24,000 nucleotides of DNA. Origin: Rhodoligotrophos appendicifer. Its GTDB lineage: Bacteria; Pseudomonadota; Alphaproteobacteria; Rhizobiales; Im1. The position numbers and the translations under genes were made by a program. This document shows, one piece after another, positions 5,844 to 24,000 of this stretch. The stretch covers positions 75,156-99,155 of the forward strand of contig NZ_VHKL01000003.1 of the NCBI RefSeq assembly GCF_007474605.1, written 5' to 3'. Positions within the stretch are counted from its first letter, which is position 1. Each line of letters starts with the position of its first letter. Below the pieces are notes generated by a model that was not told where the DNA came from, ran no database searches, and saw only the letters and a list, made by a program, of their open reading frames with translations.

Positions 5844-5854
5844 AGATCGCGCCC

Positions 5855-7450: not shown

Positions 7451-7478
7451 GATATCTGTGGTGGTCCGGGGAAGGCGT

Positions 7479-8468
7479 TCAGTGGGAATGCGTCTCGATG
7501 AGGGTCTTGAGGACCCTTCGGGTCGCTGCAATGTCGGCCGCTGGGATCTGCCTGAAGGTCTCCTTCTCGATTTCCCAAGAAAATTGGATGACCGCGTTGA
7601 TCCTCTCGGTCCCCTCGGCAGTGAGTTCGAGGCGGCCCAGGGAATCTGTCGTCACCAGCCCTCGCGCCCGCAACTGGCGGAAGACGCTCTGACCCGCATT
7701 CATGCCCAGCAGCATTTCCGGCAGCAACTGATCCAGGGTCCGACCCGGCATGGTCTTCACCGCCCGCAGCAGGATCGATTCCTGCAGCGAGACGCCGCCG
7801 CGCCGCCGTGCCGTCTCCATCACATTGACCATGGCCCCATAGGCCTTGATGAACAGGCTCGTGGTGAGCCGGTCTGCCACCGATTGGCCTGCCCCTTCCA
7901 CATCCATGCCGTCAAGCGACTCGCTCTGAGGATAATCCGCTACGATCGCATAGCGACCCTGAGCGAACAGCAGGGGCTGACGGTCATATCGGCAATAGCG
8001 TTCCACCAGGCCGATGATGATCAGATGGTCGCCGCCATCGACCACCGTAGTCTTGCGGCATTCAAAGCTGGCTACCGCCCCGTCAAGCACCGGCACCCCC
8101 TCGACGCCAGGCGTCCAGGCAACCCCGTTGAATTTGTCCGGCCCCGATTTTGCGAAGATCTTCGACAGCTCGATCTGGTCGTCGGCAAGAATATTAACAG
8201 TGAAGAAATGCGACGCCTCGAACAAGGGAAAGCTTTGGCTGTGGCGCTTGATCGACCACAGGATGAGCGGCGGTTCGAGCGACACCGAGGAGAATGAGTT
8301 TGATGTCATCGCGGCGAGTGTATCCCCCACCCTCGTAGCGATGACCGTAACTCCGGTTGCGAATTGTCCCAGGCACCGGCGAAACGCCGCCGGATCGCTG
8401 GTTGGATAGCCAGCCTCGATCGGTGTGTCCATGCGGGGATCGTCCTCGTGATGGGCTGCTCGGTTCAC
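7479..8468 (-). CDS. Flavin reductase domain fused to a C-terminal MarR-type winged-helix domain
   Basis: 329-aa ORF. The N-terminal ~170 aa carry flavin-reductase-like motifs ([17 protein letters not shown]; [16 protein letters not shown]; FECR...GDHLIIIG). The C-terminal ~120 aa read as a MarR/wHTH ([26 protein letters not shown]...[25 protein letters not shown]). The GTG start overlaps the LLM stop (GTGA at 8465-8468). An alternative ATG is at 8430-8432. Confidence 0.8.
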
Positions 8469-9493: not shown

Positions 9494-9544
9494 CCGCAAA
9501 TCTCCATTCTGACAAAGGAGGCTGGCCGGATCGGCCAACGCTGA

Positions 9545-10426
9545 TCAGTCTTCGTCCCTGAATTCCGCTGACCAGTGCAGCACGGCCTTTTCGACCAGAC
9601 GCACGGAATAGACCAGTGCCAGGCCGACCACGCTCAACACCGTGATCGCCGCGAACATGTCTGTGGCATTCAGCGCCGCGAGCGCTGAGATCATGATATA
9701 GCCCATTCCCGTCGCGCTCCCGACGAACTCCGAGAGCACCACGCCCACGAGCGCGAAGCTCACAGCATTGGGCAACGCCGCAAAGGTCCAGGCTGCGGCG
9801 TAAGGCACCCTCACGCGCCAGAGGATCTGGTGGGAGCTGCCACCAAGGGTCCGACAGAAATCGAGCAGCTCACGCTGCACGCTGAGGCTTCCTTTATAGG
9901 TGTTGAAGAACAGTAGGAAGAACACGACGAACCAGGCCGTCACCACCTTGGAGGCGATCCCCAACCCGAAGATCATCGTGATCAGCGGCACAAAAGCGAT
10001 GCGCGGCATTGAGTTCAAGGTCACGATGAACGGATTGAGCACCCGCGCCAGGAATTTGTTCTGCGCCAGCGCTAACCCGACCACGAAGCCGCTCCCCGCC
10101 CCGACAAACAGTCCCAGGAAGGTCGCCGACAGGGTGCTCCAGAGATTGGGCCAGATCGAATAGGGGCCGGGCACCATCCACTCACCGATACGCGCGATGA
10201 TCTTGGATGGCTGACTGATGAAAAAGGGATCATAGATCGTGTTCTCCGCAAACCACGGAATGCGCGTCAGGAATTCCCAGGCGCCGAGGACGACGGCGAG
10301 GATCCCGATCTGGCAGAGCACGACCTGCATCGATTGGCGTCGGCTTCTGCGCCGCACCGCCTGCAGATATTCGGCGTGGCTGGGCACGACACCGCTGTCG
10401 CTCCGGCTGATGTCGATCGCCACCAT
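9545..10426 (-). CDS. ABC transporter permease, NitT/TauT (SsuC/TauC-like) family
   Basis: 293-aa ORF with about 6 hydrophobic spans and the family loop LNSMPRIAFVPLITMIFGLG. It starts 4 nt after the ATPase stop. Confidence 0.85.
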   Translation of the reverse strand: MVAIDISRSDSGVVPSHAEYLQAVRRRSRRQSMQVVLCQIGILAVVLGAWEFLTRIPWFAENTIYDPFFISQPSKIIARIGEWMVPGPYSIWPNLWSTLSATFLGLFVGAGSGFVVGLALAQNKFLARVLNPFIVTLNSMPRIAFVPLITMIFGLGIASKVVTAWFVVFFLLFFNTYKGSLSVQRELLDFCRTLGGSSHQILWRVRVPYAAAWTFAALPNAVSFALVGVVLSEFVGSATGMGYIMISALAALNATDMFAAITVLSVVGLALVYSVRLVEKAVLHWSAEFRDED

Positions 10427-10430
10427 GGCC

Positions 10431-11273
10431 CTACTCGCTCGCCTGAAACTGCTGGCCGAGAACGGTCCAGATCCGATTGAAGTGCTGGGTAAACAACTCG
10501 CTCTGCCGCACCGTGAACACGTCGCGCGGATGAGGGATGTCGATGCACTCGTCGAGGAGGATCCGGCTGGGCGGCGACGACAGCACGATCACTCGGTCGG
10601 AGAGGGTGATCGCTTCGTCCAGGTCGTGCGTGACCATGACGACTGTCTGGTTGAGCTTCCGCCAGATCTCGATGAGCTCGCGATGCAGATGGGTCTTGGT
10701 ATGCGTGTCGAGCGCGCCGAAAGGCTCGTCCAGCAGCAGAATCTCCGGATCATTCGCAAGCCCCATGAGCAGGGCAACCCGACGGCGCATGCCCCCGGAA
10801 AGCTGATGTGGATAGGCATCGGCGAAATCGCTGAGATGGGCCATCTCCAGCAGCGCATCGATTTTGGCTTTCGCGATCTTGCGGTCGACACCGTTGAAGG
10901 CGGGACCCAGCCCGACATTCTTGCGGACCGTATACCAGGGCAGCACCGTGTCCTTCTGGAAGATATAGCCGAGCCGCGTCTTCCCCCGGCCTGTGTCAAG
11001 CAGCGAGATCTCGCCCTTCGTCGCCTGGGTGAAACCGGCGATGATGTGCAAGAACGTGCTCTTCCCGCATCCCGAGGGACCGACGATCGACACGAATTCG
11101 CCCTTGCCGATTGTCGTCGTGATGTCCCCAATGGCCCAGGTCTCACTCGTTTTTGAATAATAGACCTTGCCCACGCCCTTCGCTTCGATCATCGGCTCCG
11201 GGCGAGGCTGCGCGGCGACCCTGGACTCGCAGGGTTCATGCTCGACGAATCGAAGCGGGGGCGAAACACTCAT
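10431..11273 (-). CDS. ABC transporter ATP-binding protein, NitT/TauT (SsuB/TauB-like) family
   Basis: Walker A GPSGCGKST, signature LSGGMRRR, Walker B ILLLDEPFGALD. ATGA overlap with the SBP gene stop (11270-11273). Confidence 0.9.
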   Translation of the reverse strand: MSVSPPLRFVEHEPCESRVAAQPRPEPMIEAKGVGKVYYSKTSETWAIGDITTTIGKGEFVSIVGPSGCGKSTFLHIIAGFTQATKGEISLLDTGRGKTRLGYIFQKDTVLPWYTVRKNVGLGPAFNGVDRKIAKAKIDALLEMAHLSDFADAYPHQLSGGMRRRVALLMGLANDPEILLLDEPFGALDTHTKTHLHRELIEIWRKLNQTVVMVTHDLDEAITLSDRVIVLSSPPSRILLDECIDIPHPRDVFTVRQSELFTQHFNRIWTVLGQQFQASE

Positions 11274-12334
11274 GTCCCTCGCGCCTTCGTCACGAAAGCC
11301 ATGTCGACTTCAGTGGCATAAGGCAGCTTGGCCATATCCGCGTCGGGCATCATTCGGTCGCCACCCATAACCGTCAACACGCGCTGATAAGCCTCCGGCG
11401 AGACGACATTGTCCTTCGACCAGACCTTCTCCTTGAGCACCGAGATGGTCCGCACGAGAGTGTCCTTCTTAAACGAGCGCAGGAATTCCTCGTGGATCAG
11501 GTCGGCGACGGTCTCAGGAGAATTGGCGAAGACAAATGCATTGCCCTTCATCCATCCCGTGACGAAGGCCTGCACGGCATCTGGCCGCTTCTCAACGAAG
11601 GGCGCTAAAGTATAGATCCACTGTCCCGGCACATCGCCGCCGAGCCCCATGGCGGCAGTCCAGCCAGCGTCGTCATTGATGCTGACGATCGGTACGCCCC
11701 AGCCTTCCTTTTCTGCTTGGTCCATCATGGTCATGGTTGCCATGCTCGCATCGACCTGACCTGACTTGAGCGCTGCAAGCATCTCAGGCGTGCCGCCGAT
11801 GAAACGGATCTCCACACCCTCGAGCTTGCCCTTCTCGACCATATGTGAGGCCATCAGCCAGAAGGCCGACTTTGGCCCGGAAACGCCCAGCCTCTTGCCG
11901 CTCAGATCGGAGAAGCTCTTGATTTGGCCGGACTCGAAATCCTTCCGATTGACGATGACATTTGCGTAGGGCAGCCGCCGATCGATGCTGGCGATAACCT
12001 TGGTCGGCTTGCCTGCGAGGGTGATGATGATCGGATCAAAGGAGGCCGATGCGCAGATGTCGATTTGCCCTGCAGCAAGCATTTGCCTTGCTCGAGGGCC
12101 ATTCTGGCAATCCAGGAAACTGGCATTCAGCCCCGCCTCCTTGAAGAAACCTTTCTTGAGCGCGACGAAGCCGGCGGTGAACATGGCATCGAGATTGCCG
12201 ATGCCGTAAACTAGGTCGCCGGCACTGGCCTGGGCCGCGATCCCGCCGGGAACGAATGCAGCTGTCGCCGCAAGACCTGCCGACCCCGAAAGAAAACGCC
12301 TGCGGTCGATCGTCCGAGAATTATTCTTGAGCAT
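11270..12334 (-). CDS. ABC transporter periplasmic substrate-binding protein, NMT1/THI5 (SsuA-like) fold, Tat signal
   Basis: 354-aa ORF. Twin-arginine signal IDRRRFLSGSAGLAATAAF...AQA. It is the first gene of the unit, directly downstream of operator copy 1. Confidence 0.85.
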   Translation of the reverse strand: MLKNNSRTIDRRRFLSGSAGLAATAAFVPGGIAAQASAGDLVYGIGNLDAMFTAGFVALKKGFFKEAGLNASFLDCQNGPRARQMLAAGQIDICASASFDPIIITLAGKPTKVIASIDRRLPYANVIVNRKDFESGQIKSFSDLSGKRLGVSGPKSAFWLMASHMVEKGKLEGVEIRFIGGTPEMLAALKSGQVDASMATMTMMDQAEKEGWGVPIVSINDDAGWTAAMGLGGDVPGQWIYTLAPFVEKRPDAVQAFVTGWMKGNAFVFANSPETVADLIHEEFLRSFKKDTLVRTISVLKEKVWSKDNVVSPEAYQRVLTVMGGDRMMPDADMAKLPYATEVDMAFVTKARGT

Positions 12335-12395
12335 TTCACAATCCCGTCTGATGGCTCTATCGGCCGTTCAGAACAGGTTCTTGCCACACCCATTA

Positions 12396-12431
12396 ATTGT
12401 CAAGAGAAATATAATATTGTACATATACAAT
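12396..12431. promoter_or_regulatory. Composite operator copy 1: ATTGTCAA-N12-ATTGTAcataTACAAT
   Basis: Box ATTGTCAA at 12396-12403 and inverted repeat ATTGTA/TACAAT at 12416-12431, in the AT-rich gap between the LivF-like stop (12452) and the SBP start (12334). The architecture and 20-bp offset match those at 17115 and 21380. Confidence 0.7.
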
Positions 12432-12451
12432 AATATTTCGAAATTCAGTCG

Positions 12452-13156
12452 TCAAATCCCGAGATAGGCCTGCCGAACTCGGGGGTCGTTGAGCAAAGCC
12501 GAGGCCGGACCGCTGGCAGTCATTCGACCCAGGTCCAGGGCATAAGCACGATCGGCTGCGGCCAGTGCTTTGGCGGCATTTTGCTCGACCAGCAGCATGG
12601 TCACCCCTCGGGATTGGATGTCGGCGATGGCGGCGAAGATTTTCTCGACGATAATCGGTGCGATGCCGAGCGATGGTTCGTCCAGCATGAGCAGCCGCGG
12701 GTTGCCCATCAGCCCGCGGCCGATAGCCAACATCTGCTGCTCTCCTCCGCTAAGTGTCCCCGCCTGCTGATCAATGCGCTGCTCCAGGATGGGGAACAGC
12801 GCCAGGGCATGCTCGAAATCCCGTTTCACCTTCGCGTCTTGGACGCGGGCGTAGGCGCCCAAGACCAGGTTCTCGCGCACGCTCATCCGGCCGAGCACCA
12901 TACGACCTTCGGGCACATGGATGATGCCTGTCCGGACGATCGCGTCCGGCTGAATCGCAAGCAGATCCTGGCCGTCGAAAATGATGCTGCCGGAGGTCGG
13001 CTTGAGGAGGCCGGATATGGTCCGTAGCAGGGTCGACTTGCCGGCGCCATTAGGGCCGATCACCGTGACCAGTTCCCCTTTGGCGATCGTGATGTCGATA
13101 CCATTAATGGCGGAATTCCCGCCATAGCCGCAATGCAGCCCCTTGATTGTCAGCAC
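12452..13156 (-). CDS. Branched-chain-amino-acid-type (HAAT family) ABC transporter ATP-binding protein, LivF-like
   Basis: Walker A GPNGAGKST, signature LSGGEQQMLAIGRGL, Walker B LLMLDEPSLGIAP. GTG start 1 nt after the LivG-like stop. Confidence 0.9.
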   Translation of the reverse strand: MLTIKGLHCGYGGNSAINGIDITIAKGELVTVIGPNGAGKSTLLRTISGLLKPTSGSIIFDGQDLLAIQPDAIVRTGIIHVPEGRMVLGRMSVRENLVLGAYARVQDAKVKRDFEHALALFPILEQRIDQQAGTLSGGEQQMLAIGRGLMGNPRLLMLDEPSLGIAPIIVEKIFAAIADIQSRGVTMLLVEQNAAKALAAADRAYALDLGRMTASGPASALLNDPRVRQAYLGI

Positions 13157-13157
13157 G

Positions 13158-13904
13158 TCAATGCGCCTTTCCCAGATAGGCGGTGATTACATCCGGGTTC
13201 TTGGCGATTTCCTCAGGCGGACCTTCGGCGATCTTCTGGCCGAAATTGAGCACCACGATTTTGTGGCAGACGCTCATCACCAGCTTCATGTGGTGCTCCA
13301 CCAGGACCACCGCGACACCGCTCGCGCCGATCTCCCGAATGATGTTCGTCAGCCAGTCAAGTTCCACCGGATTCATGCCAGCAGCGGGCTCGTCAAGCAG
13401 CAGAACCCGAGGACGCATGGCCATGGCGCGCGCGAGCTCCAGGCGCTTCTTTTCTCCATAAGAGAGCGCGCTTGCTGGCCAGTCAGCTCGATCAGCAAGC
13501 GAAAAGCGGGCCAGCAAATCTTCAGCCTCTACCCGCAATTGCCTCTCCTCTGAGGTCGGAATGGCACTGATTTTTGACAGGAGGGAGCGACATAATATTC
13601 CCTGGCCCGAACGCACATTGTTCCGAACCGTCTGGCTGTTGAACAACCGAAGATTCTGAAATGTTCTGGTCATGCCCGATTTGGCGATTTGGTCGGAACG
13701 ATTGCGGGTGATCTCGCTCCCATTCAGCCTGATACGCCCCGCGCTGGCCGGGAGGAGTCCGGTGATGACATTTATGGTTGTCGTCTTCCCTGAGCCGTTG
13801 GGGCCAATAAGGCCAAGAATTTGCCCCGGGGAGACCGCGAAGCTTAATTCGGAAAGGGCCTTCAGGCCGCCGAATGATTTGCTGAGATTAGAAACGTCCA
13901 GCAT
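13158..13904 (-). CDS. HAAT-family ABC transporter ATP-binding protein, LivG-like
   Basis: Walker A GPNGSGKTT, signature LSYGEKKRLELARA, Walker B VLLLDEPAAGMN, and the LivG-type C-terminal tail. Confidence 0.9.
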   Translation of the reverse strand: MLDVSNLSKSFGGLKALSELSFAVSPGQILGLIGPNGSGKTTTINVITGLLPASAGRIRLNGSEITRNRSDQIAKSGMTRTFQNLRLFNSQTVRNNVRSGQGILCRSLLSKISAIPTSEERQLRVEAEDLLARFSLADRADWPASALSYGEKKRLELARAMAMRPRVLLLDEPAAGMNPVELDWLTNIIREIGASGVAVVLVEHHMKLVMSVCHKIVVLNFGQKIAEGPPEEIAKNPDVITAYLGKAH

Positions 13905-13910
13905 GTTGCC

Positions 13911-14834
13911 TCATATGGCGCTCTGCGCGACTGATGCCTTTTCGGGCTCCTTCTGTCCCTCCCGCAACTTGGCCTCCCGGTTCTTCCTCTCGGCTAAGCG
14001 GAAGCGCAATTCGTCAACCAGCCCTCGGGGGCAGATTACGATCATGATGAGAACGGCTGCGCCATAGAAGATCATCCGGAAGTCGCCGGTAAATCGGAAC
14101 GCCTCTGGCAGGAAGGTCAGGAGAATCGCCCCGAAGACCGGGCCATAGAAGCGCTCCGTTCCTCCAACCGCCACGTAGAAGATCGAGATCAATGCCAGGT
14201 GAAAACCGAAATTGTCGGCAACCACATAGGACATGTATGTGGAATAGAGTCCGCCGCCCACGCCCGCAATAAAGGCGCCCAGCACGAACATCGACACCTT
14301 TACCAGCACGATGTTCACTCCCGCGCACGAGGCGGCAGCCTCGTCTTCTCGGATGGCGTTGGTCGCGAGCCCGACGCGCGAATGCTCGATCCAGGCGAAA
14401 ACTGCTACGAAAGCCGCAACCGCGATCAGGATCTGCGGCCAGGCGGTGAGGACCTCGATGCTGCGAAAACCGAGCGGGCCCGCAGGACCAAGCATCTGGC
14501 CGCCAACGTCTTTCTGGAATTCGAAATTGTTGAAGAAGACGCGCACAACCTCAGAGAAAGCGACCGTTGCCAAAGTGAGATAGATGCCGCGGATCCGCAA
14601 GCAGGGATAGCCCAGGAGAAGCCCTATGACGGCGCACACCCCCCCTGCAACGAGGAGGGCCGGAAAAAGCGAGAAATCGTAAAGCGTGGTCAGCATGCCG
14701 CCGACGAAGGCGCCGATCGACCAGAAGCCAACTTGGGCCAGAGAGAACTGTCCCACCATGAGCGTCGCGTAAACGCTGAGGGCCAGAATGATATTCAGGC
14801 CAGCCAACTCGATCATCGCGATGAGGAAATACAT
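13911..14834 (-). CDS. HAAT-family ABC transporter permease, LivM-like
   Basis: 307-aa polytopic membrane ORF lying between the LivH-like and LivG-like genes, in the canonical order. Confidence 0.85.
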   Translation of the reverse strand: MYFLIAMIELAGLNIILALSVYATLMVGQFSLAQVGFWSIGAFVGGMLTTLYDFSLFPALLVAGGVCAVIGLLLGYPCLRIRGIYLTLATVAFSEVVRVFFNNFEFQKDVGGQMLGPAGPLGFRSIEVLTAWPQILIAVAAFVAVFAWIEHSRVGLATNAIREDEAAASCAGVNIVLVKVSMFVLGAFIAGVGGGLYSTYMSYVVADNFGFHLALISIFYVAVGGTERFYGPVFGAILLTFLPEAFRFTGDFRMIFYGAAVLIMIVICPRGLVDELRFRLAERKNREAKLREGQKEPEKASVAQSAI

Positions 14835-14838
14835 GCCT

Positions 14839-15747
14839 TTAGTCTCGCTTCGCTTCGAGCGCGCTGAACAGACCCTGCGGGCGGATGACCAGCACTGCGA
14901 ACAGGATGATGAACAGGACCGCTTCCTTCATTGAGGCCGAGACCGTCCCCACGACAGTCGTTTCGATGACCCCGACCAGCAGTCCGCAGATCATGGCTCC
15001 ACGGACACTGCCCAGCCCCGCCAGCACGATGATCACGAAGCCAATGAGCAGGAGGTTGGAGCCCATGAAGGGATTGACGGTGCCCATCGACACTCCGATG
15101 AGGCAACCGGCAGCTCCGGCAATTGCAGAGGCGACGGCGAAGACCACGATTTCGATACGCTTGACATTGATTCCCAGAAGCCAAGCCATGTTCGGATTTT
15201 CCTCGACGGCTCGAATGGCCATCCCAGTATGGGTGGAATGAATCCACCACTGGAGCGCTGCCATCAAGATCAGCGCGATGACGAAGATCACCACATGGAC
15301 GCCGCGCACATAGAGCGGTCCGATATCGAAACCGAGATTTTCGAGCGGCGAAGGAAAGGAGGTGAATTCTGGCGAGAACCAGACCACATGGTTGCTAAGT
15401 TGGACAAAGGCTTCTTCCAGGAGAATCGCAACGGCGGCACTGGTAACGAAGGGAGCGAGAGGGGCCGCATTGCGCAGCGGTGCGAAGGCAACAGAGCGCA
15501 CGACTATGCCCAGGATGCCGCCCGTTACCACCGAGGCCGCGAAAGCAAGCCCCAGGACGGCATAGCTCTCCGCCCCACCCAGGCGCAGGGAAATGGTAGC
15601 GCCCGCAAAGGCCGCCACCATGATCACCGCACCATGGGCGATGTTGAGCCGATTGAGGACGCCGAAGATGAGCGTAAAGCCGATCGCCACTAGCGAATAG
15701 GTGGCGCCGAAGAGCAAGCCGCCTAGGATGTATTCGAGATAGATCAT
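14839..15747 (-). CDS. HAAT-family ABC transporter permease, LivH-like
   Basis: 302-aa polytopic membrane ORF. The N-terminus MIYLEYILGGLLFGATYSLVAIGFTLIFGV is typical of LivH. GAGGG SD upstream. Confidence 0.85.
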   Translation of the reverse strand: MIYLEYILGGLLFGATYSLVAIGFTLIFGVLNRLNIAHGAVIMVAAFAGATISLRLGGAESYAVLGLAFAASVVTGGILGIVVRSVAFAPLRNAAPLAPFVTSAAVAILLEEAFVQLSNHVVWFSPEFTSFPSPLENLGFDIGPLYVRGVHVVIFVIALILMAALQWWIHSTHTGMAIRAVEENPNMAWLLGINVKRIEIVVFAVASAIAGAAGCLIGVSMGTVNPFMGSNLLLIGFVIIVLAGLGSVRGAMICGLLVGVIETTVVGTVSASMKEAVLFIILFAVLVIRPQGLFSALEAKRD

Positions 15748-15777
15748 TCTCGCCCTCGCTTGCTCCCGACGAGAGGA

Positions 15778-17013
15778 TCAGTTGTTCGCGGCAGGATCCC
15801 ACTTGACGAACTTGCCGTCCTTGATGACCAGCATGACACCCGACTTCGGCGTGTCGTGATCCGCATTGAAGGCGATTTTCTCTCCGCTGATACTGACTGT
15901 CGTCGCCTTTTCCAGCGCATCCCTCAGCTTAGCGCGATCCTCTTGCAGCGATTCCTTGGTGTTCTTGATATCGGCCTTCTCGACTGCATCCTTAAAAAGA
16001 TACATCGCTTCGTGGCCGTTCACCGCGAACAGGCTGATGTCCTGTCCGTGTTTGTTATTATATTCCGTAGCGAACGCCTTGATGCCGTCCCCGGCAGGAT
16101 CGTAGGAACTGGCGACCAGCATGCCTTCCATCGCCGAACCGCCGGACTTCAGCGTGTCCGCAGTCAGCTGCGAGATTCCGCCAAGGAAATACTTCGGCTT
16201 CAGCCCGCGGCGCCGCGCCTCCTTCATGAAGTTGATCGCCGGAAGGGTGTTTGCAAGCAGGTAGACCACGTCCGGATTGGCCGCCTTCAGCTCGTTGACC
16301 TGGCGAGAATAATCGGTGTCCTTTGAGACACCGTCGGTGACCGCAACCACTTCGATTCCGGCCTTTTTCAGCTCTGGAATGATGGCCTGGTCGGCGATGG
16401 ACGGAAAGTAGATGTTGTCCTTCATGATGTACAAACCGACCGTTTTTACACCCTGCTTCTTCAGGGTTTCGACGATATTCGGAATGACGTAGTTTTCGCT
16501 GAAGGTATTGCGGAATCCCCATTTCGAAATCTTGCCCAGCCCGGGCGCGCCAACGGAGGAGGAATGGACGACGATGGGAGTTCCCTGCTTGTCCAACTCG
16601 TTCAGATAATTGAAGACCGCCTGGCCAGCATTGGAGACCGAGAGCCCCTTGATGAAAAGCACCTGATCGTCGAAGACCAGCTTTTTCACCAGGGACAGGG
16701 TCTGAGCCGGATCGCCGCCCGCATCATAGCCATTTTCGGTCGGCACCACTTCAATCTTCACTTGCTTACCGTCGATGGTCATGCCGCCTTTGGCATTGAT
16801 CTCGTCTATGGCGATCTGCGAGGCCCAAAGAGCAGGAAGCCCGTACGGCGCGTAGGTTCCGGTCTGCGACTCCAGCAGTCCAATGCGGACCGTACCGTCA
16901 TCTTGCCAAGCTTGGGCGGCGCCAATGCCGCCCAACATCACTGTTGCCGCGATGAAGGCCGGCGCGATGAACCGGACCCGGTGAGAGCCGAGCGCTGCGA
17001 AATCGAATTTCAT
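15778..17013 (-). CDS. HAAT-family periplasmic substrate-binding protein (LivK-like / Peripla_BP_6)
   Basis: Inner part of ORF 15778..17091, starting MKFDFAALG (ATG 17011-17013, GGGAGG SD 6 nt upstream). Signal peptide ending GAAQA-W. Mature start VRIGLLESQTGTYAPYG is typical of the family. Confidence 0.85.
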   Translation of the reverse strand: MKFDFAALGSHRVRFIAPAFIAATVMLGGIGAAQAWQDDGTVRIGLLESQTGTYAPYGLPALWASQIAIDEINAKGGMTIDGKQVKIEVVPTENGYDAGGDPAQTLSLVKKLVFDDQVLFIKGLSVSNAGQAVFNYLNELDKQGTPIVVHSSSVGAPGLGKISKWGFRNTFSENYVIPNIVETLKKQGVKTVGLYIMKDNIYFPSIADQAIIPELKKAGIEVVAVTDGVSKDTDYSRQVNELKAANPDVVYLLANTLPAINFMKEARRRGLKPKYFLGGISQLTADTLKSGGSAMEGMLVASSYDPAGDGIKAFATEYNNKHGQDISLFAVNGHEAMYLFKDAVEKADIKNTKESLQEDRAKLRDALEKATTVSISGEKIAFNADHDTPKSGVMLVIKDGKFVKWDPAANN

Positions 17014-17114
17014 GTTGTCCTCCCTTGTCGGTGGAACCCGCCGAGCGTTCTGTGCGCTCGCAGTGGGTAAACCGATGGCCCAAGCCGTCATTAACGTTGC
17101 CGAACAGCCCCACT

Positions 17115-17150
17115 ATTGTCAATGCGAAAGTCTTATTGTCACAAGACAAT
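17115..17150. promoter_or_regulatory. Composite operator copy 2: ATTGTCAA-N12-ATTGTCacaaGACAAT
   Basis: Box at 17115-17122 and inverted repeat at 17135-17150. The arms extend to a perfect 8 bp, TTATTGTC/GACAATAA (17133-17152). It lies between the CMD gene stop (17210) and the LivK-like start (17013). Confidence 0.7.
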
Positions 17151-17153
17151 AAA

Positions 17154-17177
17154 GGGGCGAGATCCGAAGCTGCGCCC
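17154..17177 (-). terminator. Possible weak terminator or processing hairpin after the CMD gene
   Basis: GGGCG/CGCCC stem plus 2 further pairs around a bulge. On the minus strand it is followed by CTTTATTGTCTT, a T-rich tract that overlaps operator copy 2. The stem is imperfect and the loop long. Confidence 0.25.
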
Positions 17178-17209
17178 AGAGTTTGATGTCGATGAACGCC
17201 CTCATCTCT

Positions 17210-17587
17210 TCAGAGTTGACCCATCTCCGTCAGCACTTCCTCTGCAGCCTTGTAGCTCTCGACCGCTGCCGGGAGGCCGCAATAGAGGATGCATTGGTAG
17301 AGCACCTCCTGGATCTCATCGACCGTGCAGCCATTGTTGATCGCCGAGCGCACATGAAACTTGAATTCGGTGATGCGGTTCAGCGCCGTCAGCGTCGCTA
17401 GGAGCAACAGGCTCCGGGTCTTGCGCTCCAGTCCGGGGCGGTCCCAGACGTCGCCGAAGCAGTTCTCCTCGGAGAAGACCCGTATCGGTGTGTTGAACGG
17501 GCTATAGCTTTTTTCGCGGCGCTCGAAATATTCCTTACCGAGCACTTCCGACATGATCTTGCGGCCGGTTTCTCTTTTTTTATTCAC
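17210..17587 (-). CDS. Carboxymuconolactone decarboxylase (CMD/PcaC-like, AhpD-fold) family protein
   Basis: 125-aa ORF. N-terminal region R..IMSEVLGKEYFERRE and the core TVDEIQEVLYQCILYCGLPAAVESY match the CMD family pattern. GTG start with GGGAG 7 nt upstream. Confidence 0.8.
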   Translation of the reverse strand: MNKKRETGRKIMSEVLGKEYFERREKSYSPFNTPIRVFSEENCFGDVWDRPGLERKTRSLLLLATLTALNRITEFKFHVRSAINNGCTVDEIQEVLYQCILYCGLPAAVESYKAAEEVLTEMGQL

Positions 17588-17620
17588 TTCCTGTCTCCCT
17601 ATGGACCTGATGATTTAAAG

Positions 17621-18268
17621 TCAGGATTGCGGGCGCAGGGTCATCAAGGCATCGGCTGCGACGACACCCCGTCCCTCGGGCCGTACGATGACCGGATTGA
17701 TCTCGATCTCCTCGATAACGGCGGCATGCTCGGCAAAAAAGCGCGAGAGGTTCACCACGAGTTCGGTAAGCGCGGCAATGTCTCCCGCCGGTCGCCCCCG
17801 CACTCCTCTAAGGAGTTTGGCGGCCTTCTGCATGGTGATGGCCCGCAGCGCAGTGTCATGGTCTAGGGGGGCGAGCCTTACCTTCTGATCGTCGAACAAC
17901 TCGACGAAGATCCCGCCTGCACCAATAACCACGATGGGTCCGAAGGTGGCGTCATGCCGGCAGCCGACGATCCATTCGGCGACCCCATCTCCGATCATCT
18001 CTTCGATCAGAAGGACGCCTTCGCTGTCCTTCGCCGTCATGGTCGCCCCGGCGGCCCTTGCGTCCTCAGCCGCGACATTCAATTTGACCAGACCATGCTC
18101 GGTCTTATGCGGAAAGCGGTCCGAGGCGAGCTTCACCACACATCGGCCCTCCTTCGGGTCCCGTTCTGGAACGGGGACTAGGGCGGCACTGAGCAGTGCC
18201 TTTGTATCGGCTTCATGCACAACGTGGCGCCCCGCTCTCGCCCAGGACGCGAGTGTTTCGCGCGCCAT
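17621..18268 (-). CDS. ADP-forming acyl-CoA synthetase beta subunit (ATP-grasp domain, acetate--CoA ligase family)
   Basis: 215-aa ORF with ATP-grasp_5-like sequence (VVKLASDRFPHKTEHGLVKLNV; LIEEMI...AEWIVGCRHDATFGPIVVIGAGGIFVE; EINPVIV). Its ATG overlaps the alpha-subunit TAA (TAATG at 18266-18270). Confidence 0.8.
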   Translation of the reverse strand: MARETLASWARAGRHVVHEADTKALLSAALVPVPERDPKEGRCVVKLASDRFPHKTEHGLVKLNVAAEDARAAGATMTAKDSEGVLLIEEMIGDGVAEWIVGCRHDATFGPIVVIGAGGIFVELFDDQKVRLAPLDHDTALRAITMQKAAKLLRGVRGRPAGDIAALTELVVNLSRFFAEHAAVIEEIEINPVIVRPEGRGVVAADALMTLRPQS

Positions 18269-19686
18269 TACATAACCCCCGAGAAGCGCGCAATCGCCTT
18301 CAAACCAGTGAGTGCCCTTATCGGCGCATCGAATACTGGAAAGGATCGTGCATGGAATGCAGCCAGTGGTGCGGGACTTAAACTCTCCGGCGCCGTCCAG
18401 ACCACGAGCAAAGGCTTGTCGGTCGCTGCAGCGGCATCCATTACCACATGAGCAAATTCCTCATGCTTGGCGAAAGTAATGATGACGATGACGGCATCGA
18501 TCCCCTCATCTGCCAATGTGAGCTCAATGACGTTCTTGAACATGCCCGGGCTCGACAGCGCGGCGCCGGTGAGGTCCACCGGGTTTCGCGTAGCGGCGAA
18601 ATAGGGAAGTGACTTGCGGATCTCCTGCTGCAAACCATCTGCGAAGCGGGGGACCTCGAAGCCGCCGGCCTCGAACACATCGCTTGCTTCGACAGCAAGC
18701 CCGCCGGCGATAGAGATAATCCCCACATTGCGGCCTCCCAGGGTCTTTCCCAAAGAGAGAGCGGCACCGGCATCTATTGCCGCTGTGAGGTCAGGCGCCC
18801 GTACAATGGACAACTCCTCGAACACACCGTCCACCACCTTATCGTCGCCGGCAATGGCTCCGGTGTGGGTGCCTACGGCCTCGGCGGCTGCCCTTCCGCG
18901 GCCTGGTTTTTCGATGACAATTCCCTTGCGGCCCCTCAAGCGCCGCGCGACTTCGACGAAGCGATCCGCGTCTCGGATCTGCTCGAGATAGCACACGATA
19001 GTGTTGGCACCTTCGTCTTCGGCCAGCCACTCCAGCGCATCGGTGCAAGTGATGTCGGTTTCGTTCCCTGTGCTGATCAGCGTCCTAATTCCTACTCCCA
19101 TGCGGTTGAGGCGATGGGCGATGGCCCCCGAAACAGCTCCAGATTGCGCCACGATGGCAATCGACCCAGGCTTGAGGCCAAGCGTCATCAGACTGAAGGT
19201 CACGAAGGTCTTGGTGGACGGCACCACATACCCTTCGCAGTTCGGGCCGAGCAGTCGATAGGGCGCAGTTCTGAGGGCCTCGACCAACTGCTCCTGCAGA
19301 ACACGACCGGGCTCGCCCGCTTCGGCGAAACCGGAGGTGATCGCCGCGACCAGCTTGATCTCCTTTACAGCGCAGTCGTTTAAACTCGCGATCAAATGCT
19401 CGGACGGCACGATGACCACGGCCACTTCGACCGGGCCCTCTATATCGGTGAGCCTGGCATAGCAGCGGTGCCCCAAGACTTCGTCGGCAGACTTGTTGAC
19501 TGGATAGACCTGTCCCTCGAAGCCGGACTCGACCAGCATCTTGAGCACGAGATGGCCCAACTTCCGCGGATCAGTGGATGCGCCAATGATCGCAACGCTC
19601 TTTGCATGGAAGGCAGCCTGCAGCGCATTGGCAGCAAGCGGTCTGGTGTTTGCCGACGGAATCGGGTTGAGGCCTGCGCCGTGCAT
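18268..19686 (-). CDS. ADP-forming acyl-CoA synthetase alpha subunit (CoA-binding + succinyl-CoA-synthetase-like flavodoxin domains)
   Basis: 472-aa ORF. CoA-binding start KSVAIIGASTDPRKLG. LLGPNCEG. Phosphohistidine-loop-like VGTHTGAIAG. Its ATG overlaps the AMP-ligase TAA (TAATG at 19684-19688). Confidence 0.85.
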   Translation of the reverse strand: MHGAGLNPIPSANTRPLAANALQAAFHAKSVAIIGASTDPRKLGHLVLKMLVESGFEGQVYPVNKSADEVLGHRCYARLTDIEGPVEVAVVIVPSEHLIASLNDCAVKEIKLVAAITSGFAEAGEPGRVLQEQLVEALRTAPYRLLGPNCEGYVVPSTKTFVTFSLMTLGLKPGSIAIVAQSGAVSGAIAHRLNRMGVGIRTLISTGNETDITCTDALEWLAEDEGANTIVCYLEQIRDADRFVEVARRLRGRKGIVIEKPGRGRAAAEAVGTHTGAIAGDDKVVDGVFEELSIVRAPDLTAAIDAGAALSLGKTLGGRNVGIISIAGGLAVEASDVFEAGGFEVPRFADGLQQEIRKSLPYFAATRNPVDLTGAALSSPGMFKNVIELTLADEGIDAVIVIITFAKHEEFAHVVMDAAAATDKPLLVVWTAPESLSPAPLAAFHARSFPVFDAPIRALTGLKAIARFSGVM

Positions 19687-21248
19687 TACGCTACCGTTCT
19701 CTGCAGCGCTGCCGCCGCATCCTGATTGCGCAAAGCTTGCCGATTGACCTTGCCCGACGGCGTTTTTGGCAGCTCGTTCACAAATTCGATGATCCGGGGA
19801 AACTCGTGCTGCGCCAGCCTGTTCCGGGTGAACGTCTGCAGGTCTTCGGCGAGCTTTGGACCCCTGGCGCCACCGGTCACCACGAAGGCTTTGACCACCT
19901 GGCCGCGTAACTCGTCGGGCACCCCGATCACGGCCGCCTCAGCCACGGAATCGTGCTTTAGGAGGGTGTCCTCTATCTCCTTTGCGCTCATGGTCCATCC
20001 GGCGGAGATGATGACATCGTCCGCCCGCCCACCATGGTAGAAATAGCCCTCCTTGTCGGTCCAACCGAGATCTTTGGTGCGGACCCACTCGCCACCACGT
20101 TCGACGACCAGTTCGCCAATGGCATGCGGGGCGCAGACATTACCGTTTGCGTCATGCACTTCGACCTTCACCCCCGGCACCGCCTTTCCGAGAGAGCGCG
20201 GCTTCACTTGAATATCCTTGGCGCCCGGATAGTTTACCAAAATGACGCCGACTTCAGTGGTTCCATACATGCTGCAAGCACGCTGACCGAAGGTTTCGAT
20301 AATGAAGTCCTCGGTCGCTGTGTCTGTGGGTTCACCCGTATAAGTCAACTTTTCGATGTAGTACTTGTGGTTCCCGGCCTGACCGCTGTTCTTCATCAGT
20401 CGGTAATGGGTGGCGGCCGCTGAAAGATTAGTGATGCGATGATCCTCTAATGCTCTCAGCAACCTCGCGGCATCGAAAGGCCCAGACCAAGCCCAGATCT
20501 TCACGCCGAGTGCCAGCGGAGCAAGAGTGCCGTGCCAGAGGCCGTGCCCCCAGGCGGGAGAGGAAGGACAGAGAAAGCGATCCTCGGGCCGGATTCCTGT
20601 GCCGTAGAGTGCCGCGACCATGACCGTGACCACAGCCTTATGCCGGTGCTTTACTGCATCAGGTAGCTCACGCGTGGTCCCCGACGTGTACTGAAACATC
20701 GCCATGTCATTGCCGGAGGTCTCAGCCTCGAACTGATCACTCTCAGTCTCAACCTCGGCTAGAAACGCCTCGTCGGCGACGATAACTTCTGTCGCACCGA
20801 AGCCATGGGCGATCCCGGCCTTCGCCGGGTCGACGATCAGCACCTTTGGCTTGCAATCATCGACACGGAGCGCCAAGCCGTCTCGCCCGAAAAGTGTATA
20901 GAGCGGCACCGCGACAGCACCCGCCTTCATGGCTCCGAACAAGCTAAAATAGAAGGGGAGCGAGGGATCCAGCATGATCGCCACTCGGTCGCCCTTCTCG
21001 CACCCCTTGCGCACGAGGAAATTGGCGAAACGATTCGACCATCGGCTGACATCCTCGATAGCCAGCAGGATTTCCGGACCCTCCTTCCGCAGGATGGTGA
21101 TGGTAACGTCCTTCCCCACGTGACGATCGACGCATTCTGTGGCGATATTCAGTCGCTCTTCATCACCGTCGAGAAGCGCCCATAAGTGCTCGCGGGAAAA
21201 TTGGGACTGCGCATCTTGGTAAGAAGCGAAATCTGTCAGCTTCGGCAT
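19686..21248 (-). CDS. AMP-forming acyl-CoA synthetase / AMP-dependent ligase
   Basis: Inner part of ORF 19686..21329 (whose annotated start is TTG), beginning MPKLTDFASYQD (ATG 21246-21248, GGAGG 7 nt upstream). Adenylation motifs include YTSGTTRELPDAVKH (an atypical A3), YGTTE and LPKTPSGKVNRQALR. Confidence 0.9.
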   Translation of the reverse strand: MPKLTDFASYQDAQSQFSREHLWALLDGDEERLNIATECVDRHVGKDVTITILRKEGPEILLAIEDVSRWSNRFANFLVRKGCEKGDRVAIMLDPSLPFYFSLFGAMKAGAVAVPLYTLFGRDGLALRVDDCKPKVLIVDPAKAGIAHGFGATEVIVADEAFLAEVETESDQFEAETSGNDMAMFQYTSGTTRELPDAVKHRHKAVVTVMVAALYGTGIRPEDRFLCPSSPAWGHGLWHGTLAPLALGVKIWAWSGPFDAARLLRALEDHRITNLSAAATHYRLMKNSGQAGNHKYYIEKLTYTGEPTDTATEDFIIETFGQRACSMYGTTEVGVILVNYPGAKDIQVKPRSLGKAVPGVKVEVHDANGNVCAPHAIGELVVERGGEWVRTKDLGWTDKEGYFYHGGRADDVIISAGWTMSAKEIEDTLLKHDSVAEAAVIGVPDELRGQVVKAFVVTGGARGPKLAEDLQTFTRNRLAQHEFPRIIEFVNELPKTPSGKVNRQALRNQDAAAALQRTVA

Positions 21249-21379
21249 GGAGGGGCCTCCTCGGGACGATCTTTCTCCTCCCCGACGAGAGCCTGCGGCT
21301 GAGGGAGAGCGGCAATTGTCACTCCGCAACGAGCGGAAGAAGGAAATCTGATGCCAAATCGATATTGATCAGAAAGGAT

Positions 21380-21415
21380 ATTGTCAATATGCATATTAAA
21401 TTGTATATGTACAAT
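21380..21415. promoter_or_regulatory. Composite operator copy 3: ATTGTCAA-N12-ATTGTAtatgTACAAT, in the divergent iclR / acyl-CoA ligase region
   Basis: Box at 21380-21387 and inverted repeat at 21400-21415. It ends 17 nt before the preferred iclR ATG (21433) and lies 132 nt upstream of the ligase ATG (21248). Confidence 0.75.
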
Positions 21416-21432
21416 AAATGCATGAGGGAGCT

Positions 21433-22239
21433 ATGCCGGATACAGCCGCTGGAAAGCCTAAAGTCATTCGTCCCGTCCCTGCTGTGTCGCGGGCGATCGC
21501 AGTGCTCAGATACCTAGCGAAGACTGATCAGCCGCAAGGCGTCGTACAACTCGCCAAGGCGCTTGAGATAATCCCAAGCACGTGCCTCCATATTCTGCGT
21601 GTCCTTGACAGTGAGGGGCTCGTCTCCTTCGACCCCGTGACGAAGAAATATCAGCTGGCGGCCGGCGTGCTCGCCCTGGCGAACGATTTCGTCAGCAAGA
21701 ACTCCTTGGTCCAGGTTGTCCGCCCGCATCTCGAGGAGGTCTCGCGCCGTCATCGCTGCACCGCCGTCGCTGTCGAGCCCAGTGGTAACAATCATTTCAT
21801 TGTTATCGCCACCACTGACCTCAATCCCGGCCTGTCTGTTCGCGTGACAGTCGGCACCCGCGTCCCTGCGTTGCTTAGCGCCACCGGCCGCTGCCTCGCT
21901 GCCTATGGCAATTGGTCGAAGGATGAGCTGCGCAAAAAATTCGCAGGCCTCCGTTGGCAGAACCCGCCAACATTCGAAACTTGGTACCAAGAAGTCGAGC
22001 ACACTCGCGAAGTCGGCTACGCCGTCGACCGCGACAACTATATCCTGGGCTTTACCATCGTCGCCGCACCGATTCTGCAGGACCCGGAGGCAAGCAAGGG
22101 ACTTATCGGCGCCATCGTCGCCCTGGGTCTGTCGGGTCAGTTGGTGGATGACCGGCTAGAAAGCCTTGCGCTAGATTTGCAGCGGGCCACGAAGCGCGTG
22201 ACCGCTCAGCTCGGCCACGCTTCCTCAAGTAGTCGCTAG
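21433..22239 (+). CDS. IclR-family transcriptional regulator
   Basis: ORF 21418..22239. N-terminal wHTH (VSRAIAVLRYLAKTDQPQGVVQLAKALEIIPSTCLHILRVLDSEGLV) followed by an IclR-type effector domain. The start is preferred at ATG 21433 (GAGGGAG SD just upstream), because ATG 21418 lies directly against the palindrome. Confidence 0.85.
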   Translation: MPDTAAGKPKVIRPVPAVSRAIAVLRYLAKTDQPQGVVQLAKALEIIPSTCLHILRVLDSEGLVSFDPVTKKYQLAAGVLALANDFVSKNSLVQVVRPHLEEVSRRHRCTAVAVEPSGNNHFIVIATTDLNPGLSVRVTVGTRVPALLSATGRCLAAYGNWSKDELRKKFAGLRWQNPPTFETWYQEVEHTREVGYAVDRDNYILGFTIVAAPILQDPEASKGLIGAIVALGLSGQLVDDRLESLALDLQRATKRVTAQLGHASSSSR

Positions 22240-22250
22240 ACGCCGGTCCT

Positions 22251-23735
22251 TCAGCTTGCATAGGCGTCGGCGTAACTTCCACCCAGGCTCATGATCGTCG
22301 AGCGCGTCTCCAGATAGGCATCCAACGCCTCTGGACCATTCTCCCGTCCAAGGCCGCTGACTTTGAAGCCACCATAGGGGATGTTCCAACGCAAATAACG
22401 ATAGGTGTTCACCCATACGGTCCCAGCCTGGATCTGGTTCGCGACCCGGTGCGCCCGACCAACATTCTGTGACCAGATACCAGCAGTGAGCCCGTACTGC
22501 GTGCCGTTGGCGATGGCGACCGCATCCTCTTCAGTCTTGAACGGGATGACTGAGCAGACTGGGCCGAAGATCTCCTCCTGGGCGATCCGCATGTCATTGT
22601 TCACATCGCTGAAGACCGTCGGTTCGACGAAATAGCCGCCCCGGAATTCGTCGCCCCCCAACCGCTTGCCACCCGCTACCAGCTTGGCCCCTTCGTCCCG
22701 GCCGATGGCAACATATCGGAGCGTTTTTTCCAATTGCTGTGCGCTGGCTTGCGGACCCATCTGGGTTCCCTCCTCAAGCGGCATCCCGACCTTGACGCGT
22801 CCGGCTCGGCGTCCGAGTTCCTCCACCACCTGCCGGTAGATGGGCTCATGCACCAGAAGTCGCGATCCGAGCGCGCAGCTCTGGCCGCAAGCCATGAAGG
22901 CCGCGTGCGTTGCGGCATTCATGGCGGAGGGAATGTCCGCATCGTCGAAGATGATATGCGGTGACTTTCCGCCATTCTCGAAAGACAGCCGCTTGAGCGT
23001 GCCGGCCGCGCTTTTCATGATCGCCTGCGCCGTGCGATGGTCACCCGTGAAGGAGATCTTGTGAACATCGGGATGGGCCACGAGATGCGCCCCGTTGGTC
23101 TTGCCGTGTCCTGGCACGACATTCAGGACCCCTTTCGGAAGTCCAGCGGCCTCGGCAATCTTTGCCATGACCAATGCCGTGACCGAGGTGGTTTCCGCAG
23201 GTTTGAGCACCACCGTACATCCTGCCGCGAGCGCCGGCCCGATTTTCCAGGCTGAGAGAAGCAACGGCGCGTTCCATGGCACGATGGCTCCGACCACGCC
23301 AACGGGCACGCGTGTCGTGTAGACGTGCATACTGGGATCGACGGGAATCATGCGTCCGTCGATCTTGTCTGCCAGGCCTGCGTAGTAATGGTACCATTGG
23401 CTGTGCGCGCCGATATCAGGTCGCGTTTCCCGGATCGGGCGTCCGTTGTCGCGAGATTCGAGCGTCGCAAGTTCACTCGTATGCTGCTCGTAGAGAGAGG
23501 CGAAGCGGCGCAGAATCCCCGCTCGTTCGTAGACGCTCATCCGAGACCAGGGTCCGCGCAGAGCCTCATTGGCGGCAGCCACCGCTCGGTCCACATCCGC
23601 CGTGCCGCCGAACTGAACCTTCGCCCAAGGGACTCCGGTCGATGGATCGATGGAGTCCACCATCTCTCCATCTAATGATGCGACCCATTCGCCGCCGATA
23701 AAGAGCTTGTCGTGCAGCCTGAGCTGTTCGTTCAT
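22251..23735 (-). CDS. NAD(P)+-dependent aldehyde dehydrogenase
   Basis: Inner part of ORF 22251..23771, starting MNEQLRLHDKLFIGGEW (ATG 23733-23735, GGGAGG SD). ALDH hallmarks: VLKPAETTS, FENGGKSP, catalytic Cys context ACGQSCALGSRL, and EEIFGPV. Confidence 0.9.
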   Translation of the reverse strand: MNEQLRLHDKLFIGGEWVASLDGEMVDSIDPSTGVPWAKVQFGGTADVDRAVAAANEALRGPWSRMSVYERAGILRRFASLYEQHTSELATLESRDNGRPIRETRPDIGAHSQWYHYYAGLADKIDGRMIPVDPSMHVYTTRVPVGVVGAIVPWNAPLLLSAWKIGPALAAGCTVVLKPAETTSVTALVMAKIAEAAGLPKGVLNVVPGHGKTNGAHLVAHPDVHKISFTGDHRTAQAIMKSAAGTLKRLSFENGGKSPHIIFDDADIPSAMNAATHAAFMACGQSCALGSRLLVHEPIYRQVVEELGRRAGRVKVGMPLEEGTQMGPQASAQQLEKTLRYVAIGRDEGAKLVAGGKRLGGDEFRGGYFVEPTVFSDVNNDMRIAQEEIFGPVCSVIPFKTEEDAVAIANGTQYGLTAGIWSQNVGRAHRVANQIQAGTVWVNTYRYLRWNIPYGGFKVSGLGRENGPEALDAYLETRSTIMSLGGSYADAYAS

Positions 23736-23782
23736 GGCATCCTCCCATTCGCAACGGCAATGGGCGCCCACCCTCGCCGCGC

Positions 23783-24000
23783 TTATTGATGGCTGTAGAG
23801 CTTGAGACCTGCGACCGGCAGCTCTGCCCGCAGGATCGACCCCGTCTGCGATTCGATGATGTAGAGATGCTTGTTCTCCGGCCCGCCAAACGCAAGATTG
23901 GTGGTGTAGAGCCCGCCGGTGGGTGACAGAATCCGAAACAAGGGTTCGCCGAGCCGCCCGAAGACGCAGACCTGGCCGGCCCCCACATGGGCGACCGCGA
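23783..24000 (-). CDS. SMP-30/gluconolactonase/LRE-family protein, C-terminal fragment; the gene continues off the right edge
   Basis: The reading frame is open to the window edge. The C-terminal sequence ...LYTTNLAFGGPENKHLYIIES... matches the conserved last beta-propeller blade (NLAFGGPDxxxLYIT) of SMP-30 lactonases. Stop at 23783. Confidence 0.7.
   Translation of the reverse strand, partial: AVAHVGAGQVCVFGRLGEPLFRILSPTGGLYTTNLAFGGPENKHLYIIESQTGSILRAELPVAGLKLYSHQ

Follow-up and report, generated by a model that had tools for sequence, protein, structure and literature searches.

A candidate composite operator-promoter element linking catabolic and transport operons to an IclR-family regulator in Rhodoligotrophos appendicifer

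Operators with more than one binding element have been described for numerous IclR-family regulators. In the catalogue of Suvorova and Gelfand (2021; PMC8222616), 94 orthologous groups have tandem palindromes whose centers are 18-22 nt apart, and 32 have three-box sites. The same paper describes an additional direct half-site for PcaU, PobR, HmgR, and IphR, and it cites a requirement for the third box in binding by PcaU and the action of TtgV, an IclR-family repressor, as a tetramer on an extended operator. Here, we analyze a stretch of 24,000 nucleotides from Rhodoligotrophos appendicifer (positions 75,156 to 99,155 of contig NZ_VHKL01000003.1, assembly GCF_007474605.1; hereafter the window) in which three copies of a composite element, made up of a palindrome and a short box, precede three operons of catabolic and transport genes, and in which one copy also lies next to iclR, the gene for an IclR-family regulator. 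Given these tandem and extra half-site cases, the architecture of this element is of a known kind. The window operator was not found in the examined part of the supplementary tables of that paper, where the nearest motif is that of the Rpic_3982/Reut_B4616 group, GTTGTAC-N3-GTACAAC, which is 17 bp long and occurs at sites about 100 bp apart. Literature searches on the gene combinations and operator strings found no description of the pathway or the operator. The regulator and its pathway appear to be uncharacterized, and the operator design is textbook for the IclR family.

The composite pattern ATTGTCAA-N12-ATTGTN6ACAATAA has exactly three matches with no mismatch in the window, all on the plus strand, at 12396-12433 (site 1), 17115-17152 (site 2), and 21380-21417 (site 3). 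A preliminary description of this DNA had reported three copies with a 12-nt gap, and its coordinates are reproduced exactly. A tolerance of three mismatches adds no further copy in the window, and none of 100 dinucleotide-preserving shuffles matched the pattern. A 40-position position weight matrix (PWM) trained only on independent metagenomic sites gives site 3 a score of 55.3 bits, site 1 45.1 bits, and site 2 39.0 bits; the maximum over 100 shuffles was 10.2 bits, and every other match above 5 bits in the window (18-25 bits) comes from reading site 1 or site 3 on the opposite strand or at an offset. The three copies agree at the constrained positions only. Because N6, N12, and the flanks vary, the copies are not duplicated cassettes. 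The three sites had also been described as uniquely AT-rich islands, which is true at 40-bp resolution, where a GC content of 0.30 or less occurs solely at 12378-12462, 17114-17153, and 21351-21435 across the whole 24 kb, but not at 200-bp resolution. The relaxed palindrome alone (up to two mismatches) has seven matches in the window versus 4.55 expected, a surplus that is not significant, and ATTGTCA occurs four times outside the operators, with about two copies expected.

Read toward the regulated operon, each site would consist of the palindrome O1 (tATTGTAyATAtACAATa), a 12-nt AT-rich spacer, the box TTGACAAT, and a weak -10 element 17 nt on. At site 3, O1 is the 16-bp palindrome ATTGTACATATACAAT (21400-21415, minus strand), or 18 bp when the flanking T/A is counted. 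The box at 21380-21387 (minus strand) contains TTGACA, the predicted -35, and ACAAT, a putative third IclR half-site. With the geometry taken from the family logo described below, the predicted -10 is TATCGA (21359-21364, minus strand) after a 17-nt spacer, and transcription is predicted to start near 21352, which would make the leader about 104 nt long. Site 2 has the palindrome ATTGTCTTGTGACAAT, as read on the minus strand, at 17135-17150, the box TTGACAAT as predicted -35 and half-site at 17115-17122, and CAACGT as predicted -10 at 17094-17099, with a predicted start near 17087. At site 1, the corresponding minus-strand elements are the palindrome ATTGTATATGTACAAT at 12416-12431, the box at 12396-12403, and the predicted -10 GAACCT at 12375-12380, with a predicted start near 12368. 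The 20-bp offset from box to palindrome noted earlier is found at all three sites. The box of site 3 and the 8 nt before it form an imperfect second palindrome, TATGCATATTGACAAT (O2), and at each of the three sites O1 and the candidate O2 are offset by exactly 20 bp. Since O1 of site 3 ends 18 nt ahead of the iclR ATG, iclR is probably autoregulated. A box-like sequence, GTGACAAT (7/8 identical), lies in the ligase leader at 21315-21322 on the minus strand, at about +30 to +37; it is 65 bp downstream of the true site 3 box, has no adjoining palindrome, and could be an extra half-site or a chance occurrence.

Sites 3, 2, and 1 precede minus-strand operons with first start codons at 21248, 17013, and 12334. 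These start positions fit Shine-Dalgarno sequences, and the N-terminus of the AMP-forming acyl-CoA ligase encoded from 21248 agrees with its homologues. On the other side of site 3, iclR (21433-22239, plus strand) encodes a 268-aa protein with the Pfam domains HTH_IclR (PF09339; residues 17-68, E = 3e-8) and IclR_C (PF01614; residues 87-253, E = 9e-13). It has the N-terminal winged helix-turn-helix, the C-terminal effector domain, and the length of about 250-280 aa that define the IclR family, in agreement with its earlier identification, and it is the candidate binder of the three sites.

We searched one genome per species for the exact pattern ATTGTN6ACAAT-N12-TTGACAAT and obtained at least 120 stretches. 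Among the matches listed, the motif is present in over 100 species-representative genomes from the Alpha- and Betaproteobacteria and some Gammaproteobacteria, including Achromobacter, Bordetella, Variovorax, Acidovorax, Bradyrhizobium, Rhodobacterales, and others. Among them, 83 have an ortholog of the ligase after the box and a divergent IclR gene beyond the palindrome, with 55-63% identity to the window ligase and 38-48% identity to the window IclR protein. A further 20 have the ligase only and two have IclR only, for a total of 105 with ligase and/or IclR, and 15 have neither. Approximately nine of these 15 are in AT-rich Bacteroidota, Firmicutes, and Acidobacteria and are apparently chance matches, two are on incomplete contigs, and four are Proteobacterial. 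The clustering of the matches at one orthologous promoter indicates that the element is no dispersed repeat and that it controls, in conserved form, a module of regulator and ligase. The four Proteobacterial matches without a following ligase (L088, L094, L118, and L119) may represent rearranged loci or additional members of the regulon; L119 does have the ligase, in divergent orientation to the motif.

Loci selected by protein similarity lead to the same element. In five loci with orthologs 57-70% identical to the window regulator (L001-L005), synteny is kept, with IclR beside the ligase, the ADP-forming synthetase, and a CMD-family protein, and with aldehyde dehydrogenase, SGL lactonase, NAD_binding_2 dehydrogenase, luciferase-like monooxygenase, and Liv transporter genes nearby. 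The composite motif is present in two to five copies each in four of these five loci, as well as in L126, which has a 60% identical IclR protein. In these loci, the box invariably faces the regulated gene, and this holds for genes on the plus strand as well. The sites precede the ligase operon; the LivK operon in L002 (6805-6844); luciferase-like monooxygenase genes with their own operators in L002 and L005; the dehydrogenase/lactonase/aldehyde-dehydrogenase operon in L001, L002, and L004; and a TonB receptor and a second ligase/thiolase operon in L004. We also scanned metagenomes with the ortholog alignment and obtained 80 loci, selected by IclR homology only, with IclR relatives 42-60% identical to ours. 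The palindrome (up to two mismatches) occurs within 300 bp upstream of iclR in 62 of the 80, and several of the 18 palindrome-free loci have upstream sequence too short to judge. In most of the 62, the box is exactly 12 nt past the palindrome. Loci chosen by the motif thus almost always hold IclR and the ligase, and loci chosen by IclR mostly hold the motif, oriented alike with respect to the genes, which supports the suggestion that the product of iclR binds the sites. The three sites are almost certainly operator-promoter units of the neighboring regulator.

Promoter geometry was examined in a logo of 104 non-identical motif-selected sites read toward the regulated gene. The inner bases of the palindrome carry 1.0-1.6 bits, with the consensus ATTGTATATATACAAT, and the spacer between O1 and the box is AT-rich and weakly conserved. 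At 17 nt past TTGACA there is a -10-like hexamer, cAaagT, in which A2 carries 0.9 bit and T6 0.7 bit. These are the two hallmark positions of the -10 element. The positions flanking this hexamer carry approximately 0-0.2 bit, which indicates that the signal reflects more than common descent. In motif-selected loci, the ligase start codon lies at a median of 58 nt from the end of the box and at no less than 26 nt, approximately the predicted +1. In Bradyrhizobium, for example at positions 3068-3146 of L018 (Bradyrhizobium manausense) and in other loci, TTGACA is followed by 16 nt, TATTTT, 7 nt, and ATG; the ligase mRNA there would be leaderless or nearly so, and this spacing leaves no space for any alternative promoter. 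The -10 at 17 nt, the start-codon distances, and the Bradyrhizobium geometry together indicate that TTGACA is a -35 hexamer, as the preliminary description had supposed from the box alone. As judged from sequence, the element has the features of a sigma-70-type promoter: TTGACA, 17-nt spacing, A2 and T6, and a start codon beyond +1. With this geometry, O1 is predicted to span about -63 to -48, with its center near -55.5. A strict-consensus promoter scan did not call the box promoters of the window, because their -10 elements are weak. The Bradyrhizobium loci additionally have a weaker second palindrome directly ahead of the iclR start.

A second logo, of 56 unique protein-selected sites oriented by iclR and chosen with no box criterion, shows the conserved positions of the box itself. 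The box still emerges at N12, with information of T 1.12, T 0.66, G 0.50, A 0.89, C 1.00, A 1.38, A 0.99, and Y 0.44 bits, such that the ACAA core and the A past the hexamer are at least as conserved as TTG. In the same logo, the T before the palindrome carries 0.83 bit and the A after it 0.37 bit; the conserved T corresponds to the plus-strand A after the palindrome and accounts for the first base of the "AA" that had been noted there. Box variants lacking TTG (TAGACAAT, TACACAAC, and GAAACAAT) retain ACAA. The last base of the box tracks the outer base of the palindrome: G..C palindromes are paired with TTGACAAC, A..T palindromes with TTGACAAT, and T..A palindromes (TTTGT..ACAAA) with TTGACAAA. 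The covariation is with the promoter-distal half of O1 (counts of 17/7 and 2/16; Fisher p = 1.4e-4, uncorrected for shared ancestry). In some lineages (L134, L137, L161, L168, and L171), a second palindrome is complete, with the box as its right half, or the palindromes are in tandem 19-20 bp apart. A second site centered 18-22 nt away and conserved upstream of orthologs, the arrangement expected of a tandem or three-box operator, is therefore present.

We consider it somewhat more probable than the alternatives combined that the sites mediate repression by an IclR tetramer that sits on O1 and on the half-site, occludes the -35, and is relieved by a ligand. ACAAT in TTGACAAT would be a third half-site, a direct repeat of the promoter-proximal half of O1 at a distance of 20 bp (two helical turns), and would form the one conserved half of a second, degenerate operator (O2). 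One dimer of the tetramer, a dimer of dimers, would grip O1 tightly and the other would reach O2, competing with sigma region 4 for the -35. The overlap of the half-site with the -35, and the competition that it would cause, points to repression, and the 20-bp offset between O1 and the box fits a tetramer. In the ligand-free state, the three operons, iclR, and probably the lactonase/aldehyde-dehydrogenase operon would be repressed, until a pathway substrate or intermediate, some carboxylic acid or CoA ester, releases or repositions the protein. The tetramer stoichiometry, the repressive sign, the ligand, and binding by the iclR product are inferred. Several observations weigh against repression of this kind. 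O1, the strongest element, is upstream of the -35, where activators typically bind as well. The weakness of the -10 elements could mean dependence on an activator; that of site 3 lacks T6, and in the more diverse protein-selected set no -10 is visible at a fixed position. Covariation of the box with the promoter-proximal half of O1 has p = 0.33, leaving only the association with the distal half significant, and the p-value for the latter ignores shared ancestry. Finally, the left half of O2 is recognizable in the window at site 3 only and is weak family-wide ("GC.TA", at most 0.6 bit).

The preliminary description had offered two interpretations, an activator site upstream of a -35 element or one extended repressor footprint. 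The evidence favors the extended footprint, given that conservation of the box goes beyond the -35 hexamer and that its last base covaries with the outer base of the palindrome; the activator mode is unlikely in our estimate, and it is the most credible of the competing explanations. The protein would then be a PcaU/PobR-like activator or dual regulator bound to O1 with or without ligand, and its ligand-bound form would recruit or reposition RNA polymerase at promoters with -10 elements too weak to fire alone. The third half-site would serve to position the tetramer and not to block sigma. The location of O1 immediately upstream of the -35 and the poor predicted -10 elements (GAACCT, CAACGT, and TATCGA) are consistent with this model, and the nearest NCBIfam models to the regulator are BhcR and PcaR/PcaU/PobR, though both scores are far below cutoff. 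PcaU and PobR, the best-studied three-box IclR regulators, are activators, and the PcaU tetramer, in common with other IclR-type factors, is expected to be operator-bound with and without effector (PMC5949891; PMC8222616). Arguing in the other direction, a perfect TTGACA -35 is present at the three sites and in most orthologs, and for promoters that depend on an activator a poor -35 is usual. The half-site also overlaps this hexamer, which would set the regulator against sigma region 4 in one and the same major groove.

A simpler and improbable alternative is that the box is a -35 hexamer alone and that a single IclR dimer binds O1, with the 12-nt offset fixing the distance between the dimer and RNA polymerase. 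TTGACA is the consensus -35, the -10 lies at 17 nt, and the left half of the second operator is unrecognizable at sites 1 and 2, all in favor of this model. Against it stand the A after the hexamer (0.99 bit), which is conserved like the hexamer itself, the covariation of the next base with the outer base of the palindrome, the retention of the ACAA core in variants without TTG, and the full second palindrome found at the box position in some lineages. The AT-richness of the motif and its few exact matches in unrelated AT-rich Bacteroidota and Firmicutes genomes are all that would suggest a dispersed repeat, a resemblance between AT-rich stretches by chance, or a binding site for some other, global regulator, and we regard this as extremely unlikely in view of the shuffles, the resemblance of the copies at constrained positions only, the 105 of at least 120 matches listed at orthologous ligase and/or IclR promoters, the palindrome in 62 of 80 IclR-chosen loci, and the absence of any Rfam RNA family at the three sites or in the leaders and of any match in plasmid sequences. 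A dispersed repeat, which the preliminary description had named as one outcome that would refute its proposal, was considered specifically as a REP- or MITE-like element and rejected, with no extra copies found in the window.

The regulator itself falls outside every named IclR subfamily, since its NCBIfam scores are all far below cutoff: 75.0 bits versus a cutoff of 284.75 for PcaR/PcaU/PobR (TIGR02431), of which it is not a member, 76.6 versus 350 for BhcR (NF045644), 62.5 versus 406 for AllR, 51.7 versus 275 for KdgR, and 46.3 versus 380 for IclR. Its relatives in the PDB are distant, with 5tjj as the top match (E = 6e-20), BlcR at 1e-7, and AllR also distant. Close relatives are few; the top non-self match is 74% identical, and most matches are metagenomic. 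The recognition helix PSTCLHILR is nearly invariant within the clade, which accords with the conserved TTGT/ACAA core of the operator. Immediately before this helix, the residue after GV (approximately IclR residues 36-38, compared across loci L126-L205) tends to track the outer base of the operator. N is paired with A/T, H or Q with G/C, and K with TTTGT..ACAAA or with TGTACAAC boxes; the residue in the window's own clade is V. This trend may represent co-evolution of regulator and operator and, having no phylogenetic correction, is suggestive only.

The genes downstream of the three sites form three units. Unit 1 (17210-21248, minus strand), behind site 3, has four genes, encoding the AMP-forming acyl-CoA ligase, the two subunits of an ADP-forming acyl-CoA synthetase (by Pfam, CoA-binding/Succ_CoA_lig in alpha and ATP-grasp_5 in beta), and a CMD-family protein. 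On the contig of one ortholog (P0015; JGI 3300050821), a single 1009-aa protein combines the AMP-forming ligase with the ADP-forming synthetase's alpha subunit, which suggests that the two types of CoA ligase work together. Unit 2 (12452-17013, minus strand) has five genes for a Liv-type ABC transporter, namely a LivK-like binding protein, two permeases, and two ATPases. Unit 3 (3951-12334, minus strand), defined by Pfam domains and gene layout, has seven tightly packed genes for an NMT1/SsuA-like binding protein, an ABC ATPase, a permease, a luciferase-like monooxygenase, a flavin reductase, a carboxyltransferase, and a biotin carboxylase fused to BCCP. Within the flavin reductase (7479-8468, minus strand; 329 aa), the Flavin_Reduct domain covers only residues 34-174, and the C-terminal stretch of about 150 aa has no Pfam match. 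A simple promoter/terminator scan found no intrinsic terminators between the units, such that some read-through from one to the next is possible. The closest orthologous loci, with IclR proteins 57-69% identical to that of the window, carry two to five composite sites before similar operons, and the assignment of at least 16 catabolic and transport genes to one regulon is supported for this reason, as is the earlier view of about 16 genes as one system.

The regulon probably reaches past these 16 genes. Downstream of iclR and convergent with it, an aldehyde dehydrogenase gene (22251-23771, minus strand; Pfam) is accompanied at the window edge by the C-terminus of an SGL-type lactonase (23786-24000, minus strand) that is 75% identical to the L002 protein, which places the beginning of this aldehyde dehydrogenase/lactonase operon beyond the window. 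Because the orthologous operons in L001, L002, and L004 bear the operator, we predict a fourth site immediately past position 24000, and the operon would probably be the fourth unit of the regulon.

In motif-selected genomes, the genes after the ligase usually encode a double-hotdog hydratase of 379 aa, a family III CoA-transferase, and a binding protein of the TctC or TRAP type, and in three of these loci a carboxyltransferase 56-68% identical to that of the window is nearby. None of the ten window proteins tested had a match above cutoff in NCBIfam, and the hydratase and CoA-transferase of this wider module likewise score below cutoff; the CoA-transferase is nearest to succinate-glutarate and mesaconate CoA-transferases, also below cutoff. 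We offer with low confidence the speculation that the monooxygenase, the lactonase, a hydroxyacid-type dehydrogenase, and the aldehyde dehydrogenase could convert a cyclic ketone to a lactone and then to a dicarboxylic acid. With similarly low confidence, the ligase, the hydratase (in relatives), and the acyl-CoA carboxylase could then process the CoA ester.

A broader interpretation, which we put forward tentatively as an appreciable possibility, is that these loci belong to an undescribed and widely distributed IclR regulon in which one 8-bp element serves as both -35 and half-site for a ligand-shifted tetramer. By moving between occluding the promoter and standing beside it, the tetramer would act as a built-in repressor/activator switch. 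The core of such a regulon would be an unnamed pathway of AMP-forming ligase, double-hotdog hydratase, and family III CoA-transferase, to which the lineage of the window would add a two-component luciferase-like monooxygenase, lactonase, dehydrogenases, an acyl-CoA carboxylase, and two ABC importers.

The remaining genes of the window lie to the left of unit 3. A tRNA-Pro(GGG) gene (3365-3442, minus strand) is located in the 700-bp gap past the last gene of this unit, the biotin carboxylase gene ending at 3951, and the catabolic cluster therefore abuts a tRNA gene. tRNA genes are common boundaries of acquired islands. At the left end of the window (1433-3249, minus strand, and 379-1410), an unrelated pair of genes encodes a Fer2_4 protein and an FAD/Pyr_redox_2 protein; the FAD/Pyr_redox_2 protein has BFD and sarcosine-oxidase A3 domains and resembles opine/sarcosine oxidases. 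A DUF3008 protein and an LprI-like protein are also encoded there. The PWM scan found no operator upstream of any of these left-end genes.

For an uncharacterized IclR-family regulator, the analysis specifies an operator, predicted promoters and transcription starts, target operons, and one predicted target outside the window, and it links the window's genes, at least 16 in number, to a module of regulator and ligase that over 100 bacterial species have in common. Searches with the operator could locate the remaining genes of the pathway genome by genome, and the operator could serve in a biosensor once the ligand is known. The element is also a clear case in nature of a consensus -35 merged with a regulator half-site, and it does not challenge present knowledge of the IclR family.

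Compared with described IclR systems, the window operator is a variation on familiar designs. As in the tandem and three-box operators of PMC8222616, an AT-rich WTT...AAW palindrome lies beside a divergent IclR gene, the regulon has several sites, and a second element 20 bp away, on the same face of the helix, fits a tetramer. Unlike the operators described in that paper, the window palindrome is 16 bp long (18 bp with flanks) with a TTGT/ACAA core and corresponds exactly to neither consensus type, and its second site is cut to approximately one half-site fused to a consensus -35. Like the repressors TtgV, BlcR, AllR, and IclR, the window regulator is proposed to cover about 40 bp including the promoter as a dimer of dimers and to be released by an effector; its similarity to these proteins is distant, and the operators are unrelated. 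A parallel in layout exists with PcaU and PobR of Acinetobacter baylyi, HmgR, and IphR, which likewise have a palindrome and a direct repeat of the half-site in a divergent intergenic region. Their half-site is of the GTTCG/CGAAC type and they are activators; the third box of the window sites overlaps a consensus -35, an arrangement that points to repression.

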